A stretch of DNA of 55,363 nt from a virus (taxonomy: Duplodnaviria; Heunggongvirae; Uroviricota; Caudoviricetes): IMG/VR virus record IMGVR_UViG_2721755498_000004; one strand, written 5' to 3'. The first letter of the stretch is position 1; every line of letters begins with the position of its first letter. Below the pieces are notes generated by a model that saw only the letters and a program-made list of their open reading frames with translations, made no database searches and was not told the origin of the DNA. The translations under genes were made by a program, and so were the position numbers. This document shows, piece by piece, positions 1,815 through 49,355 of the stretch.

Positions 1815-4800
1815 TATGCAAGCCTCACAATATAGTTAAATGCGATGTTTTTGACGGTGTTTTCCGCGTTACCAGCAGCGTTAACGGTGATGGTATGTCC
1901 ATGTGAACCAATCGCAACGGAGTGCGTATGAGCACCAATACCGACAGTATGTGCGTGTGCACCTGCGCTTGCAGCAGTACCCGATACAGAGTGCGTATGA
2001 GCGCCTGCAGAAGAAGTGTTAACACTGTATTTAGAATAATCAGATGCTCCACTTCCCGGAGCACCACTGGAACCACCTGAAACAAATGTCATCGAATGGG
2101 TATGTGCACCGGCTGAAGCAGCCGTACCGCTAACACTATGGGTATGCGCACCAGTGTTATTCGTGGATTTAGTGCCGTAATCAAACGACGATGTGGTTTT
2201 CGTCCCCAAATCCGTACTGGATACGCTGGCGCTGTGGGTGTGTGATTTAATGCCGTCCTGTTCCTGAGACAATACGGCCCGACCACTGGCGGGCTTGCCC
2301 TTAATCATCCAGCCACGCATATCAGGGATCACCCCTGACGGATAAGCCGCTGCAAGTTTCGGGTAAGCAGATTTGTCAAAAGTCTGCCCCTGCATCAGGG
2401 CATAACCAGACGGAACGGTATCTGATGGCCACGGGATTGGTGCGCCAACTGGGTAGCTTTCTGGTGGAAGATTTTTCGAGGTATAAACTTCTGCCCAGCC
2501 TTCCTCAAAACCATAGCCATCTCTTGAGGAACGGTAGAACAGACCTCCATTTCTGTAATGCGCCTTCATCTGCAGGGTCCGGCAACTTCCGACTCCGGTA
2601 TAGAAGTTAACCAGAATATAGGTGTCGCCAGAGCGGGTGACATTGTAAGCGCCTGATTCGGCATTCCAGGGAACGCCACCATCCGCATCGGCATATGTAT
2701 CCGTTGCCCTTCTGGCAAAAGCAGCCACATGCGCGGCGGTTAAAGTAATATCTCTGGAACCATCAAACTCAACACCAGAAACCAGTCTTGGCGTTTGCAG
2801 CTTTGTTGCTGTTCAATGCATTACCGTTCAGACTTGCGGACAGTTTGGTTCCAATAACCAGTTCGCCGGTTGCGTTATCAATAGCAAACGGTCTTAATGT
2901 ATTCCAGCCACCATAAACATCACCTTGATTGGTAAGCAGCAGGTAAGTTTTAGCGCCATCATTACGCCATAATGCACCATACTCCCCACCTATCATTCGA
3001 ATCTGATTACCACCACGCGCTACAATTTCGTCTGTGGCAAAAAGTTTTTTGCACGACAAGTTATCGTTAACGATTAACGAATGGGACTCATAAAAACCAC
3101 GCCCACTCTTAAAATCAAGGATAACGTCCGCCGCGATACATTCAGTCGCCGGATTTGTTGCCCCAAACTTATAGGTCGTATCATTAACAACGAGATCAGC
3201 ACCAGGTGCGGATATTGACAGGCCATCTTCGATGAACGCAAAAACAGGGAAAGCAGCGCCATCAACATAGAACACAGAGCGCAAATCATCGCCCTTATTA
3301 CTCATCATTATTGAGTGGATGGCTCGTTCATTGTTTTGATATTGCCAGAACATTCCATAAGCATAACGCCCCCTGTCAGTCCAGCCACCAGGCATAACAA
3401 ATCCGTTAAACTCGCAGTTATTCATCGGATCGTCTGCGGTTCGCGTTGCCGTGGTGATAATGACCCTTGATGCCAGTTCGCTTACTGAGCCAGCAGAACG
3501 CATAACAACAACAGGGTAATATTTTCCAGATGTTGCACCTGCAGGAGCGTTAACCCGCACATAACGCATACCACGCTTATCAGCAAAGTCTGTTTTACTG
3601 ACCGCGTTAATGTTGTTCAGGAAGCGTCCCTTATCGGGTATATCAGCGCCGTTCTGGTCTTTCTGCAGACGTTTCTCTGCATTGTCATAGGCTGCTTTTA
3701 CTGCCTTTGGCGTTGCCGCCAGCGTTTCAGACGTGCTGTTGGTCGCACTGCTGAGCTGTACTATCCCCTTTTTCGTCGTACTTGCATCCTCAAGCGCCAC
3801 GGCGGATGCAATATCCTCTGCCCGTTTTGCCGCTGTCTCGGCGCGCGTTGCCGCGGATTCCGCCGTACTTTTGCTCTGTGCTGCCGCCGTCGCACTGCCA
3901 GCTGCCTCTGTCGCCTTCGTGGATGCTGTCGTGGCGCTGCCCTTCGCTGCGGACGCTTGTCTGGTCGCCTCATCTTTTGAAGCAGACGCCGATGATGCCG
4001 ATGACGCCGCCGAACTGGCGGACGATGCGGCAGCCGTTTTTGAGGATTCTGCGCTGGTTTCCGACGCTTTCGCGTTCGTCTCGGATGTCTTCGCTGCGGA
4101 AGCAGACCTCGCTGCTGCGCTGGCCTGTTCAGTGGCTTCGCCAGCCTTCGTTGTGGCTGTTGAAGCAGACGATGCGGCACTTTCTGCCGATTTTCCGGCG
4201 GCGGTGGCACTGGCTGAGGCCTGCCCGGCACTTGTTGACGCTGCACTGGCAGACGACGCAGCCGCTGTTTTTGAGCCTGCCGCAGCCGAGGCGCTCTGTC
4301 CCGCTGCCGTTTCAGAAGACCTGGCGTTCGTCTCTGACGTTTTTGCCGCCTTCGCGGAATTTCCTGCCGCTGTTGCCGAGGAAGCTGCGCTACTGGCGCT
4401 CGAGGATGCGTTCGTTTCTGATGATTTTGCCGCCTCTTTTGAAGCCGCCGCATCCCGGGCTGAGGTGGCAGCTTCTGACGCTTTCGTAGTCGCGGTGGAT
4501 GCAGAAGTGGCTGCTGATTGTTGTGACGCTGCAGCATTCGTTTCTGACGTTTTCGCGGCACTGGCACTGGTAGCTGCCGCGCTTTTTGAGGACTCTGCAG
4601 CGGCAGCACTTTTTGATGCTTCAGTGGCCTTTGTTGATGCCGTTCCTGCGCTGGAAGTCGCTGACTGAGCCGACGACGCGGCCTGTCCGGCTGACGTGCT
4701 GGCTGCGCGTGCTGAGCCTGCAGCATCAGTCGCATGGGTTGCCGCCTCACGGGCTGATGTGCTGGCATCACTGGCTGACTTCTTCGCGGCTGCCGTGTTC

Positions 4801-45664: not shown

Positions 45665-46090
45665 TCAATGCACAGCCACAATATTTCCTGCAGGGCCACC
45701 ACGATTCATCTGGTTGAAACCAGCGATCGCCACTGCGACAAAATCATCAGCGTCTCTCACCAGTCGTTCCCGCGTCTCCACTAGTTCCCGAAAATAGGCT
45801 GAGCTATGGCTGCGCATTCGGGCCACCAGCAGAGGTGGCATTGCTTTTTCGATAGCTGGTAACAACGCCTGAATTTTTTCAACTGCATCAGGGGTGTCTT
45901 TCTCTACCCAGCGGAAAATTTTCTGGGTATTGCGAGCCAGGGCTTCCGGATGGCTGTCGTCATACAGTTCTGGGAACGTCATACCCAGTTCAAAATAAGC
46001 CCTGGTTATTTCAGCTGCCGGAACTTTTTCACCGTCCGGATGCGCCCAGGCATTCATCGCCATGCGGATGTGTTCATGCTTGATTTTCAT
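45665..46090 (-). CDS. early-region protein in the YdaT position (141 aa)
   Basis: Second gene of the rightward-early-like operon after the Cro-like gene; size matches K-12 YdaT (140 aa). Identity by synteny only. Confidence 0.45.
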   Translation of the reverse strand: MKIKHEHIRMAMNAWAHPDGEKVPAAEITRAYFELGMTFPELYDDSHPEALARNTQKIFRWVEKDTPDAVEKIQALLPAIEKAMPPLLVARMRSHSSAYFRELVETRERLVRDADDFVAVAIAGFNQMNRGGPAGNIVAVH

Positions 46091-46355
46091 GAATCAAGCT
46101 CCTAGAAAGTGGTTGTGTTAACATTTTGGTATCTTCCAGCTCGGGCCAAATATTCATCCAATCAAAAGGCCTTAGTTGCTGACGTGTAACTTCACCATTA
46201 CTGGCTCGCTCAATAAGGACACATAACGATGCCCCTAACACTTGACCTTTACTCAATGCCTTTCTTAGATAACCGATGCTGGTACCACACTCGCATGCAA
46301 ACATACGCTGTTCATCTGACGAAAGAGAATTGAGAAATATTCTTAATTCTTCCAT
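46074..46355 (-). CDS. Cro/CI-type HTH protein, divergent from the repressor gene (YdaS position)
   Basis: 93 aa with HTH-like segment (GTSIGYLRKALSKGQ); divergently transcribed from racR across an operator-bearing intergenic region. Confidence 0.55.
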   Translation of the reverse strand: MEELRIFLNSLSSDEQRMFACECGTSIGYLRKALSKGQVLGASLCVLIERASNGEVTRQQLRPFDWMNIWPELEDTKMLTQPLSRSLIHENQA

Positions 46356-46384
46356 AGCTACTCCTTAGTAAACACAGCAAAGAA

Positions 46385-46462
46385 TACCCATAGGTAAACA
46401 TAAGTCAATACCCACAGGTTGTTTACCTTGCAGTAATCGCATCTATTATTTACCTATGGACA
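46385..46462. promoter_or_regulatory. candidate operator cluster between the Cro-like gene and racR
   Basis: TACCCATAGGTA (46385-96), TACCCACAGGTT (46409-20), TACCTATGGACA (46451-62, overlapping the racR ATG); consensus palindrome TACCCATGGGTA. Confidence 0.55.
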
Positions 46463-46875
46463 AATATGAATTTAGACGACAGCAACTCATCAAAATTCGT
46501 GATGAGAAATGCGATGGTAAAGCGGTTAACGTGGCCAGAAAGATCGGGCGCGAGCCTTCTTATGTATCAAGAATGTTGTACCCAGAGGGGAAAAAGGGAA
46601 AAAAACGGATCGCTGATGATATGGTGGAGATTATCGAAGAGTCCTTTGGGTTACCCCGGGGATGGATGGATGGTATCGTTTCATCATCAACGAACACAGC
46701 CTCCAGTTATGAAACAAGGGTTCTTACGCCACGACAACGTATTTTTTTAGATCTCTTGGACGAACTGCCAGAAAGTGAAGCGGATAACTTATTAAAAACT
46801 CTTGAAGAGAAAAAACAGTATTACAATATGATCTACGAAGAAATCCGTAAAAAGAAAGCACAAAACGCATCATAG
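46456..46875 (+). CDS. racR: prophage repressor
   Basis: 139 aa, divergent from the Cro-like gene and flanked on both sides by palindromic operator-like sites. K-12 RacR is recalled as 158 aa, so start or identity may differ. Confidence 0.6.
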   Translation: MDKYEFRRQQLIKIRDEKCDGKAVNVARKIGREPSYVSRMLYPEGKKGKKRIADDMVEIIEESFGLPRGWMDGIVSSSTNTASSYETRVLTPRQRIFLDLLDELPESEADNLLKTLEEKKQYYNMIYEEIRKKKAQNAS

Positions 46876-46917
46876 CTCACCAAACAACTAGTCACCAGTT
46901 AAGACACCGTAAAAAGT

Positions 46918-46954
46918 TACCCATGGGTATTTACTTTTTAAATACCTATGGGTA
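46918..46954. promoter_or_regulatory. candidate operator pair downstream of racR
   Basis: Perfect palindrome TACCCATGGGTA (46918-29) and TACCTATGGGTA (46943-54), centres 25 bp apart, upstream of ydaG. Confidence 0.55.
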
Positions 46955-47129
46955 TCCTTCTTTTCATACCAACCCACCCCGCCCCACAGAATGCAGGGCA
47001 ATACTTCGAGTTACCAGGCAGTGGTCAGGGGTTAAGTAGCCAGCCCGAGGCGTAAGAACATGACGGCGGGATTCAAATTTTGCAGTGCAGCAGTTAGTTC
47101 CGCCACCCGGCGTTAAGGGGAGAGATAAG

Positions 47130-47264
47130 ATGGTGCATTACGAAGTAGTTCAGTATTTGATGGATTGTTGCGGTATCACTTACAACCAGGCTGTGCAGGC
47201 TTTACGCAGCAACGACTGGGATCTCTGGCAGGCAGAAGTCGCTATACGTAGCAACAAGATGTGA
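47130..47264 (+). CDS. ydaG: small protein YdaG-like (44 aa)
   Basis: Hand-found ORF (MVHYEVVQYLMDCCGITYNQAVQALRSNDWDLWQAEVAIRSNKM) with GGGGAGAG RBS; below the track cut-off; size and position match K-12 ydaG. Confidence 0.5.
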   Translation: MVHYEVVQYLMDCCGITYNQAVQALRSNDWDLWQAEVAIRSNKM

Positions 47265-47274
47265 GATTCGCAAA

Positions 47275-47430
47275 ATGCAAAAAATCGACCTCGGCAACAA
47301 CGAATCCCTGGTGTGCGGCGTGTTCCCCAACCAGGATGGAACGTTCACTGCCATGACGTATACCAAAAGCAAAACATTTAAAACCGAAACTGGTGCGCGC
47401 CGATGGTTGGAGAAGCACACAGTAAGCTAA
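47275..47430 (+). CDS. ydaF: small protein YdaF-like (51 aa)
   Basis: Hand-found ORF (MQKIDLGNNESLVCGVFPNQDGTFTAMTYTKSK...) 10 bp after ydaG; size and position match K-12 ydaF. Confidence 0.5.
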   Translation: MQKIDLGNNESLVCGVFPNQDGTFTAMTYTKSKTFKTETGARRWLEKHTVS

Positions 47431-47915: not shown

Positions 47916-47966
47916 ATCAATAACTCTCAACTGTAAGGGTATTGAAATGTTGGTAATGACTCCAAC

Positions 47967-48470
47967 TTATTGATAGTGTTTTATGTTCAGATAATGCCCG
48001 ATGACTTTGTCATGCAGCTCCACCGATTTTGAGAACGACAGCGACTTCCGTCCCAGCCGTGCCAGGTGCTGCCTCAGATTCAGGTTATGCCGCTCAATTC
48101 GCTGCGTATATCGCTTGCTGATTACGTGCAGCTTTCCCTTCAGGCGGGATTCATACAGCGGCCAGCCATCCGTCATCCATATCACCACGTCAAAGGGTGA
48201 CAGCAGGCTCATAAGACGCCCCAGCGTCGCCATAGTGCGTTCACCGAATACGTGCGCAACAACCGTCTTCCGGAGCCTGTCATACGCGTAAAACAGCCAG
48301 CGCTGGCGCGATTTAGCCCCGACGTATCCCCACTGTTCGTCCATTTCCGCGCAGACGATGACGTCACTGCCCGGCTGTATGCGCGAGGTTACCGACTGCG
48401 GCCTGAGTTTTTTAAGTGACGTAAAATCGTGTTGAGGCCAACGCCCATAATGCGGGCTGTTGCCCGGCAT
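47967..48470 (-). CDS. insB: IS1 transposase InsB
   Basis: 167 aa recognised as IS1 InsB. Confidence 0.9.
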
Positions 48471-48664
48471 CCAACGCCATTCATGGCCATATCAATGATT
48501 TTCTGGTGCGTACCGGGTTGAGAAGCGGTGTAAGTGAACTGCAGTTGCCATGTTTTACGGCAGTGAGAGCAGAGATAGCGCTGATGTCCGGCGGTGCTTT
48601 TGCCGTTACGCACCACCCCGTCAGTAGCTGAACAGGAGGGACAGCTGATAGAAACAGAAGCCAC
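48389..48664 (-). CDS. insA: IS1 protein InsA
   Basis: 91 aa with zinc-finger-like CxxC..CxxC N-terminus, recognised as IS1 InsA. Confidence 0.9.
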
Positions 48665-49133
48665 TGGAGCACCTCAAAAACACCATCATACACTAAATCA
48701 GTAAGTTGGCAGCATCACCTGAAATGTTAACACAAGCTCTCGCTGTAGGGGTATAGCCGAGACCACCGAAGCCCGGAGGTGGTGAAATAAAACCGGGCAC
48801 AACACGAAGGCGCATTTCCGATATCCATAAAGAGTCGGTCTTGTCTGTTAAATTTAAATGGTGGGAGTGCGCCTCCGGTTGTAAATAACGACATTGCTGT
48901 GTGTAGTCCTGGCGGCATCAGTTTTTTTCTTGAAGTTCGGCTGATGTCCGCCCTTTTTAAAGTGAATTTTGTGATGCGGTGAATGCGGCTAAGCGCACGT
49001 GGCACAGTTAAAAGTCATGTTAGTCCTTATTGGTTTGGGTGGGAAAGCCGACTGTAATTGTTAACTGGTTGCAGTCACCTGGAGGCACCAGACACCGCAT
49101 CAACAAAGTTCATTTGTAAAAATGGAGATAATT

Positions 49134-49355
49134 ATGATTGCACATCACTTCGGAACTGATGAAATACCACGTCAGTGTGTGACTCCTGGCGATTATGTTC
49201 TTCATGAAGGCCGGACATATATTGCCTCGGCAAACAATATTAAAAAGCGAAAACTATATATTCGTAACCTGACCACAAAAACATTCATTACTGACCGCAT
49301 GATTAAAGTCTTCCTCGGTCGTGATGGTTTACCTGTAAAGGCGGAGTCATGGTGA
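49134..49355 (+). CDS. kilR: cell-division inhibitor KilR
   Basis: 73 aa from [14 protein letters not shown] (GGAG RBS); size and position, first gene of the kilR-ydaE-racC-recET block, match Rac KilR. Confidence 0.75.

Follow-up and report, generated by a model that had tools for sequence, protein, structure and literature searches.

The DNA studied here is a stretch of 55,363 nt from IMG/VR virus record IMGVR_UViG_2721755498_000004 (Caudoviricetes), referred to below as the window, and all positions are those of the whole stretch. Between 46385 and 46954 the window carries a cluster of 12-bp palindromes around a gene for a 139-amino-acid (aa) repressor, and we consider it very probable (about 85%) that these palindromes are the operators of this repressor, arranged like the right and left operators (OR and OL) of phage lambda. 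A preliminary description of the same DNA had read five palindromes in this way, and the core of that reading is strongly supported by phylogenetic footprinting, by the overlap of the sites with predicted promoters, and by the boundary of a module swap relative to the Rac prophage of E. coli K-12; however, two of its parts are wrong or unsupported, i.e. the identity given to the repressor and the position given to the third operator. The repressor gene had been called racR, and it does occupy the position equivalent to that of racR in K-12 Rac, but its product is not similar in sequence to K-12 RacR (BLASTP, E = 2.3).

Sites were scored by their mismatches to the reference 12-mer TACCCATGGGTA and by the half-site pattern TACC-N4-GGTA. 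The five 12-mers originally reported were recovered with the coordinates and mismatch counts claimed for them (46385, one; 46409, three; 46451, three; 46918, none; 46943, one), and the downstream pair, which includes the one perfect palindrome, lies 25 bp apart, start to start. Three of the five had been placed within the intergenic stretch that separates the repressor gene from a divergent Cro-like gene; those at 46385 and 46409 turned out to be conserved in relatives, whereas the one at 46451 did not, and a site at 46424-46435 had not been listed. The sites and the repressor gene are as follows.

46385 to 46396, no strand: O1, predicted OR1-like operator, TACCCATAGGTA, 1 mismatch, exact TACC-N4-GGTA
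46409 to 46420, no strand: O2, predicted OR2-like operator, TACCCACAGGTT, 3 mismatches, at the conserved -48 position
46424 to 46435, no strand: O3, predicted OR3-like operator, TACCTTGCAGTA, at the conserved -33 position
46451 to 46462, no strand: ATG-overlapping site, TACCTATGGACA, 3 mismatches, 2 of them in the outer 8 bases
46456 to 46875, plus strand: repressor gene, 139-aa open reading frame (ORF), PHROG 5736, N-terminal helix-turn-helix (HTH) domain at residues 1-75
46918 to 46929, no strand: OL2, predicted OL2-like operator, TACCCATGGGTA, perfect palindrome, 0 mismatches
46943 to 46954, no strand: OL1, predicted OL1-like operator, TACCTATGGGTA, 1 mismatch

With at most one mismatch, the reference 12-mer occurs three times in the window against 0.06 expected, a number reached in none of 100 shuffles, and the exact pattern TACC-N4-GGTA also occurs three times (0.29 expected), all three copies flanking the repressor ORF. 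When one mismatch to this pattern is allowed, 16 copies are found against 10.3 expected, five of which fall within 46385-46954, a segment that makes up about 1% of the window. At up to three mismatches to the reference 12-mer, on the other hand, there is no window-wide enrichment (16 copies, 16.5 expected), so that the copies at 46409 and 46451 are not significant by count alone and needed independent support; the degenerate pattern TACCYAYRGGTA at up to two mismatches is only marginally enriched, and no Rfam match was found at the sites. As the mismatch counts were at chance level or marginal, we turned to a comparative analysis.

The comparative set consists of 41 loci that encode the same DNA-binding domain at 30-82% identity, for which a scan of one genome per species yielded 38 loci and a phage collection added mEp043 and CharmingMan; the hosts include Enterobacterales, Aeromonas, Neisseria, Ralstonia, Paraburkholderia (Burkholderiales), Hydrogenophilaceae and others. 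The upstream regions were aligned on the start codon of the repressor gene, and a site was called when it had at most one mismatch in its outer eight bases. By this rule, 35 of the 41 loci have a site at -73 ± 3 of the repressor ATG, equivalent to O1, 24 have one at -48, equivalent to O2 (30 of 37 analysed loci when two outer mismatches are allowed), and 31 have one at -33, equivalent to O3. In total, the 61-bp intergenic windows, which amount to 2.5 kb, hold 90 sites where about one is expected. Downstream of the repressor gene, a pair of sites 24-26 bp apart is present in 31 of the 41 loci, with a -35 hexamer directly after the first site. The outer bases of the sites are near-invariant in the family alignment and the central four are variable, giving the consensus TTACCyrtrGGTAA for O1 and TCAATACCyrtrGGtt for O2. 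The frequency with which the centre is an alternation of pyrimidine and purine (YRYR) differs among the classes of sites, at 89% for O1, 81% for O2, 55-61% for the OL pair and 8% for O3 (6% by chance), which is consistent with an affinity difference built into the sites. The presence of the sites follows the recognition helix of the repressor: all 37 loci keeping a helix of the SYVSRML type, with minor substitutions, have the sites, and none of the four with a diverged helix has them. Two of these four carry a different palindrome. In Advenella loci L037 and L038, where the domain is 35-38% identical and the recognition helix is changed, ATACCGC...GCGGTAT replaces TACC-N4-GGTA at about -60 to -40 of the repressor ATG.

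The palindromes also stand in a regular relation to promoter-like hexamers, which together with the neighbouring genes are listed below.

46381 to 46408, minus strand: PR-like promoter of the Cro-like/YdaT-like operon, -35 TTGACT (46408-46403), 16-nt spacer, -10 TATTCT (46386-46381), from a consensus scan
46422 to 46449, plus strand: PRM-like promoter of the repressor gene, -35 TTTACC (46422-46427), -10 TATTAT (46444-46449), from a consensus scan
46930 to 46958, plus strand: PL-like promoter of ydaG-ydaF and onwards to kilR-recET, -35 TTTACT (46930-46935), 17-nt spacer, -10 TATCCT (46953-46958), from reading of the sequence
46074 to 46355, minus strand: Cro-like gene, 93 aa, YdaS-like HTH, PHROG 35, E = 1e-22
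47130 to 47264, plus strand: ydaG-like gene
47275 to 47430, plus strand: ydaF gene

O1 lies within the PR-like spacer and overlaps the -10 hexamer by 2 bp, and O2 abuts the PR-like -35 hexamer; likewise, OL2 is immediately upstream of the PL-like -35 hexamer, and OL1 lies in the PL-like spacer with a 2-bp overlap with the -10 hexamer. The two modules thus have the same geometry (O2, -35, six bases, O1, -10 at PR, and OL2, -35, seven bases, OL1, -10 at PL), and in both the -10 hexamer begins with the last TA of the second site. In the family the TCAA between O1 and O2 (TTGA on the other strand) is nearly invariant, and at the places equivalent to PL the relatives have TTGACn or TAGACA and TAnnnT; the predicted PL start is at about 46965. 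O3 overlaps the PRM-like -35 hexamer and is separated from O2 by 3 bp. The PRM-like -10 hexamer ends 6 nt before the repressor ATG, and transcription is predicted to start at the A of this codon (46456) or at a base adjoining it. A TAnAAT-like hexamer at -12 to -7 of the ATG is conserved across the family and no Shine-Dalgarno sequence was seen there, so the repressor mRNA is probably leaderless. Leaderless repressor mRNAs have been reported for lambda cI and paaR2 (PMC8630535) and for racR (PMC9638921).

These relations suggest how the switch might work. The 139-aa repressor would bind as a dimer to 12-14-bp dyads of the form TTACC-YRYR-GGTAA, the outer TACC and GGTA being contacted directly and the central four bases tuning the affinity. 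As O1 and O2 bracket the PR-like -35 hexamer and O1 lies over the spacer and -10 hexamer, their occupancy would turn off the Cro-like/YdaT-like operon, and occupancy of OL2 and OL1 would turn off ydaG-ydaF and, further on, kilR-recET. O3, with its atypical centre, is probably a weaker site through which a high level of repressor could shut down its own gene (negative autoregulation). The repressor ATG coincides with the predicted PRM start, and the centre of O2 lies at about -41.5 (roughly -42) from it. Lambda CI bound at OR2, about -42 from the PRM start, activates PRM, and since O2 takes the same position, positive autoregulation is plausible as well. The Cro-like protein probably binds the same sites. 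We infer the binding, the hierarchy of the sites, the activation, the leaderless start and the Cro binding.

Several points weigh against this interpretation. The promoters are consensus matches only: the hexamers that match the consensus overlap the sites, but shuffled sequences contain promoter-like matches at least as often as this region does, and the PL-like hexamers are weak, agreeing with 8 of 12 consensus positions, below the threshold of the scan. Both O2 and O3 have one outer-base mismatch in the window. Moreover, the repressor does not have the S24 domain usual in its relatives, so its oligomeric state and cooperativity may not be those of the relatives, and O2 and O3 are 15 bp apart from centre to centre, compared with 23 bp in lambda, so that the lambda hierarchy may not transfer. 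The literature searched contains no binding, footprint, transcription-start or reporter data for the window repressor or for mEp043 CI. Finally, the two downstream palindromes together with their TTTA and TAAA flanks would form a 16-bp RNA hairpin followed by UCCUUCUUUU.

This hairpin underlies an alternative that we regard as unlikely but worth weighing, namely that the pair at 46918-46954 is mainly an intrinsic terminator of the repressor transcript, which stops read-through from PRM into kilR-recET. It is the only element reported by a terminator scan of 46200-47300, its predicted fold has a free energy of -24.1 kcal/mol (z = -3.9), and from the stop codon (46875) to the pair there is no further hairpin. 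However, the 16-bp stem, which has a loop of 5 and is followed by TCCTTCTTTT, contains only five G-C pairs, and a hairpin of this kind arises automatically from any pair of copies of a palindrome. Neither the close relatives L047 and L048 nor many other loci of the family retain the T-run; the conserved elements are the -35 hexamer lying between the two sites and the -10 hexamer at the end of the second one. Furthermore, this two-site module is also found at PR, an intergenic location in which one would not expect a terminator, and a repressor bound at the pair could itself block read-through. Termination has been rejected as the main role of the pair because the T-run is not conserved; a secondary role as a terminator or roadblock is possible.

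A further question is which site acts as the third intergenic operator next to O1 and O2. According to the preliminary description it was the ATG-overlapping site at 46451-46462; in K-12, O3 of RacR does overlap the racR ATG (PMC9638921). The left half TTACC and the YRYR centre (TATG) of this site do agree with the family consensus, and its sequence is invariant among the E. coli copies. Nevertheless, no site over the repressor ATG was called in any of the 41 loci; the sequence is degraded in a Salmonella relative with 84% identity and absent in a Serratia relative with 57% identity, in both of which O1-O3 persist. In addition, the codons ATG GAC AAA dictate its right half, and matches with three mismatches occur at chance frequency in the window. 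It is therefore improbable that the original layout is correct in this respect: 46451-46462 is probably not the third operator, and may at most be a weak, lineage-specific half-site. O3 at 46424-46435, on the other hand, is present in relatives at 91%, 84% and 57% identity, and in about two thirds of the near-identical E. coli copies it reads TACCTTGCGGTA, with perfect outer bases. A common G/A polymorphism lies at 46432 in the right half of O3, where the window has the A allele (AGTA), shared by about one third of the copies, and the others have the consensus GGTA; the allele could alter the autoregulation of the repressor.

The sites might also be bound mainly by the Cro-like protein or by some other factor rather than by the 139-aa protein. 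Cro-like homologues are encoded divergently beside the repressor and accompany the sites in most loci, and in prophage CP-933P the footprints of PaaR2 and of YdaS fall on one and the same region (PMC8630535). Yet in five Klebsiella loci (L006, L008 and L010-L012) the repressor domain and the sites are present without a divergent Cro-like gene, and therefore the sites follow the repressor and not Cro; together with the tracking of the recognition helix (37 of 37 against 0 of 4), this makes it very unlikely that the 139-aa protein is not the main ligand. As to the idea that the palindromes are chance matches or a non-regulatory repeat, it draws on the window-wide count at up to three mismatches, and it is effectively refuted by the strong local enrichment, the positions fixed across distant taxa and the co-variation with the recognition helix. 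The five Klebsiella loci encode S24-type repressors and have sites at -73, in some cases at -33, and a downstream pair, with no site at -48; four of them have one more site, some 1150-1180 bp upstream. They may represent a different kind of element that uses the same repressor/operator pair.

The repressor ORF matches PHROG 5736, annotated as a transcriptional regulator, with E = 4e-70; its RefSeq annotation is "hypothetical protein". Pfam gives no match to the 139-aa protein, and no Pfam or NCBIfam model covers the DNA-binding domain of the repressor and its relatives. In a database search, the first ~72 residues (MDKYE...REPSYVSRMLY...LPRGWMDG) were found to be 50-82% identical to the N-termini of many repressors of 221-242 aa, which carry Peptidase_S24 (PF00717); the Pfam search found no such domain in the window repressor. 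A search of PDB sequences matched only the S24 domain of the relatives (lambda CI) and not the DNA-binding domain. The AlphaFold2 model of the repressor has a predicted local distance difference test score (pLDDT) of 85.5, with block means above 90 through about residue 70, and shows a confident five-helix HTH domain, with helices at 3-18, 23-30, 34-40 and 54-63; residues 77-87 form a linker that is disordered, and residues 92-138 a hairpin of helices. The Foldseek matches of the N-terminal domain are phage repressors and HTH proteins of the XRE type, among them SPC32H Rep, C.Esp1396I, HigA and TP901-1 CI. With the C-terminus of DicA, the repressor of prophage Qin, the C-terminal part shares 33% identity (E = 1e-7), and there is a match to the NCBIfam DicA model. 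The protein is thus a repressor-type HTH protein without an autocleavage domain, in which a DNA-binding domain of the mEp043 CI type is joined to a DicA-like helical C-terminal domain that would serve oligomerisation. Some homologues (P0015 and P0018) begin in a +1-frame ORF, corresponding to 46466-46750 in the window (MNLDDSNSSKFVM...), and rejoin the repressor frame near A-runs at about 46603-46617, which suggests that some E. coli genomes have frameshifted, probably inactive repressor alleles.

The comparison with K-12 Rac places the switch in its genomic context. The repressor gene, the two operator regions and the greater part of the Cro-like and YdaT-like genes are unrelated to K-12 Rac, and near-identity resumes at the predicted PL start, 46965 (CATACC...), 7 nt past the PL-like -10 hexamer. 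In K-12, RacR-type TAGGC-N3-GCCTA sites are found at the equivalent places, four of them intergenic; the RacR operator motif (T/A)TAGGC-N3-GCCTA(T/A) is present there and was not found in the equivalent region of the window. As judged from this alignment, the window carries a heteroimmune variant of Rac, in which the repressor, its sites and the Cro-like gene were swapped as one unit, the classical hallmark of an immunity region. Operators of known repressors of such prophages do not explain the palindromes of the window: those of RacR were rejected as the repressor is unrelated to RacR and the motif TAGGC-N3-GCCTA differs (PMC9638921), and those of PaaR2 as their motif GTTTAGTAA differs (PMC8630535). 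In K-12 MG1655 (L001), two RacR-type sites at 3631-3643 and 3656-3668 lie 25 bp apart, downstream of racR and upstream of ydaG, on either side of TTGACA...TATAGT, and this pair looks like an OL/PL-like module. The papers on RacR that were consulted give intergenic operators only, and according to them the RacR regulon is uncharacterised. It has been reported that RacR depletion in K-12 raises the expression of ydaF, ydaG, kilR and other leftward genes 40-70-fold (PMC11014345), which fits a repressor-controlled PL in K-12.

Some further elements were noted around the switch. A perfect TTGATT-N6-AATCAA inverted repeat lies over the start codon of the ydaT-like gene (46080-46097); it matches the published YdaT box (PMC9986795, PMC11879457) and falls within a small island of identity to K-12 Rac inside the diverged cassette. 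A complete IS1 with 23-bp terminal inverted repeats is found at 47952-48719, with a 9-bp target duplication, TGAAATGTT, at 47943-47951 and 48720-48728. The element interrupts the predicted PL operon between sieB and kilR, with an expected polar effect on kilR-racC-recET that could make repressor loss less harmful in this strain. Just upstream of kilR there is a match to a DicF-like RNA at 48898-48953, which with 39 bits stays under the gathering score of 48, and at 48955-49141 a weak match of the STnc100 kind; this is the place where the small RNA gene kilS is located in K-12 Rac.

The cassette is present in 821 of 5426 complete E. coli genomes (~15%). Copies from viral contigs are 99-100% identical, which makes them unsuited to distant footprinting, and were used for population variation. 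Among 87 near-identical copies (L043-L046 and L051-L130 among them), the three intergenic sites show variation in 9 of their 12 central columns and in 3 of their 24 outer ones (p = 4e-4), compared with only 6 of 35 columns outside the sites on the right of O1; on its left a haplotype with a 1-bp indel inflates the counts, so that the reliable comparisons are that of centre with outer bases and the columns right of O1. The changes in the centres keep YRYR, and the centres of O1 (46389-46392) and O2 (46413-46416) are the most variable intergenic columns; the centres thus vary more than the neutral-looking sequence around them. This variability could result from selection, recombination or mutation bias.

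Taken together, these observations allow a wider and more tentative picture, which we offer as a possibility rather than as our expectation: the prophage repressor of the window would be an SOS-insensitive fusion of mEp043 CI-type and DicA-type parts that lacks S24 and uses the same operators as the inducible CI of mEp043-like phages, with a downstream pair that doubles as a terminator or roadblock for the leaderless repressor transcript and with YRYR centres under selection. If this were true, about 15% of E. coli strains would have a non-inducible immunity to mEp043-like lambdoid phages, and the hypervariable YRYR centres would reflect selection that tunes affinity or phage escape from immunity. 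More generally, the analysis provides a putative function and a testable operator map for a gene annotated as "hypothetical protein", and a candidate recognition motif, TTACC-YRYR-GGTAA, for a widespread domain that has no Pfam or NCBIfam model. It also suggests that Rac-like prophages have at least three immunity types (RacR, PaaR2 and that of the window) on a common promoter/operator scaffold, and it predicts that repressor loss would release the toxic kilR and the Cro-like and YdaT-like genes. Conceptually this would be a standard lambdoid switch that overturns nothing; a search of the literature found no mention of TTACC-YRYR-GGTAA paired with this DNA-binding domain, and the specific repressor/operator pair appears not to have been described previously.

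The layout resembles the lambda OR/OL system in several respects. In both there are three dyad sites between divergent repressor and cro genes, which in lambda lie over PR and the promoter of a leaderless repressor mRNA (PMC8630535, PMC9638921) and in the window over the predicted counterparts of these promoters, and a second cluster beyond the repressor gene, at the early leftward promoter of lambda and the PL-like promoter of the window; the middle site is about -42 from the start, in the window the predicted start, of the repressor promoter, and neighbouring sites are spaced 24-25 bp from centre to centre. Unlike those of lambda, which are 17 bp long, the sites of the window are 12-14 bp (TACC-N4-GGTA), there are only two OL-type sites, and the repressor has no S24 domain and a DNA-binding domain whose sequence shows no similarity to its counterpart in lambda CI.

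With the RacR-YdaS-YdaT region of K-12 Rac, the window shares the prophage backbone and the gene order, including the YdaT-like gene and ydaG, ydaF, kilR and recET, with KilR being 100% identical (PMC9638921, PMC11879457). Both have several intergenic inverted repeats and a 25-bp pair 3' of the repressor gene at equal distance from the shared leader. However, the repressors are unrelated in sequence, the operators differ (TAGGC-N3-GCCTA in K-12, TACC-N4-GGTA in the window), a K-12 operator overlaps the ATG, and the Cro-like proteins are only weakly similar. Qin DicA/DicC resembles the window in the C-terminal helical domain of the repressor (33% identity), in having a DUF1391 gene (ydfA/ydaF) downstream and, by eye, in intergenic inverted repeats and a repeat pair downstream of dicA, whereas its N-terminal DNA-binding domain and operator sequence are unrelated.

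The PaaR2/YdaS switch of CP-933P, also a lambdoid cryptic prophage, likewise has intergenic OR-type repeats, an OL/PL region and, as predicted for the window, a leaderless repressor mRNA; its YdaS-type Cro binds the same region, and PaaR2 has no S24 domain (PMC8630535). It differs in the consensus of its repeats (GTTTAGTAA), which form four 18-bp palindromes, and in a toxin-antitoxin pair 3' of the repressor gene (PMC8630535). Furthermore, that switch has been tested by electrophoretic mobility shift assay, footprinting and reporters (PMC8630535), whereas the switch of the window is predicted from its sequence.

A further relative is the functional lambdoid phage mEp043 (GenBank PV340537, JQ182734), for which no description of the operators was found in the literature searched. 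Its CI has 228 aa and carries S24, and it has cII and N where the window has the YdaT-like gene and ydaG/ydaF. Its DNA-binding domain is 65-76% identical to that of the window repressor with an identical recognition helix, its Cro is 73% identical, and around its cI, cro, cII and N genes the same motif occurs at three places before cI (-72, -47 and -32) and again upstream of N, where two copies form a 25-bp pair, with the same PL module. The repressors of mEp043 and the window probably share immunity specificity, and we would predict cross-immunity between them.

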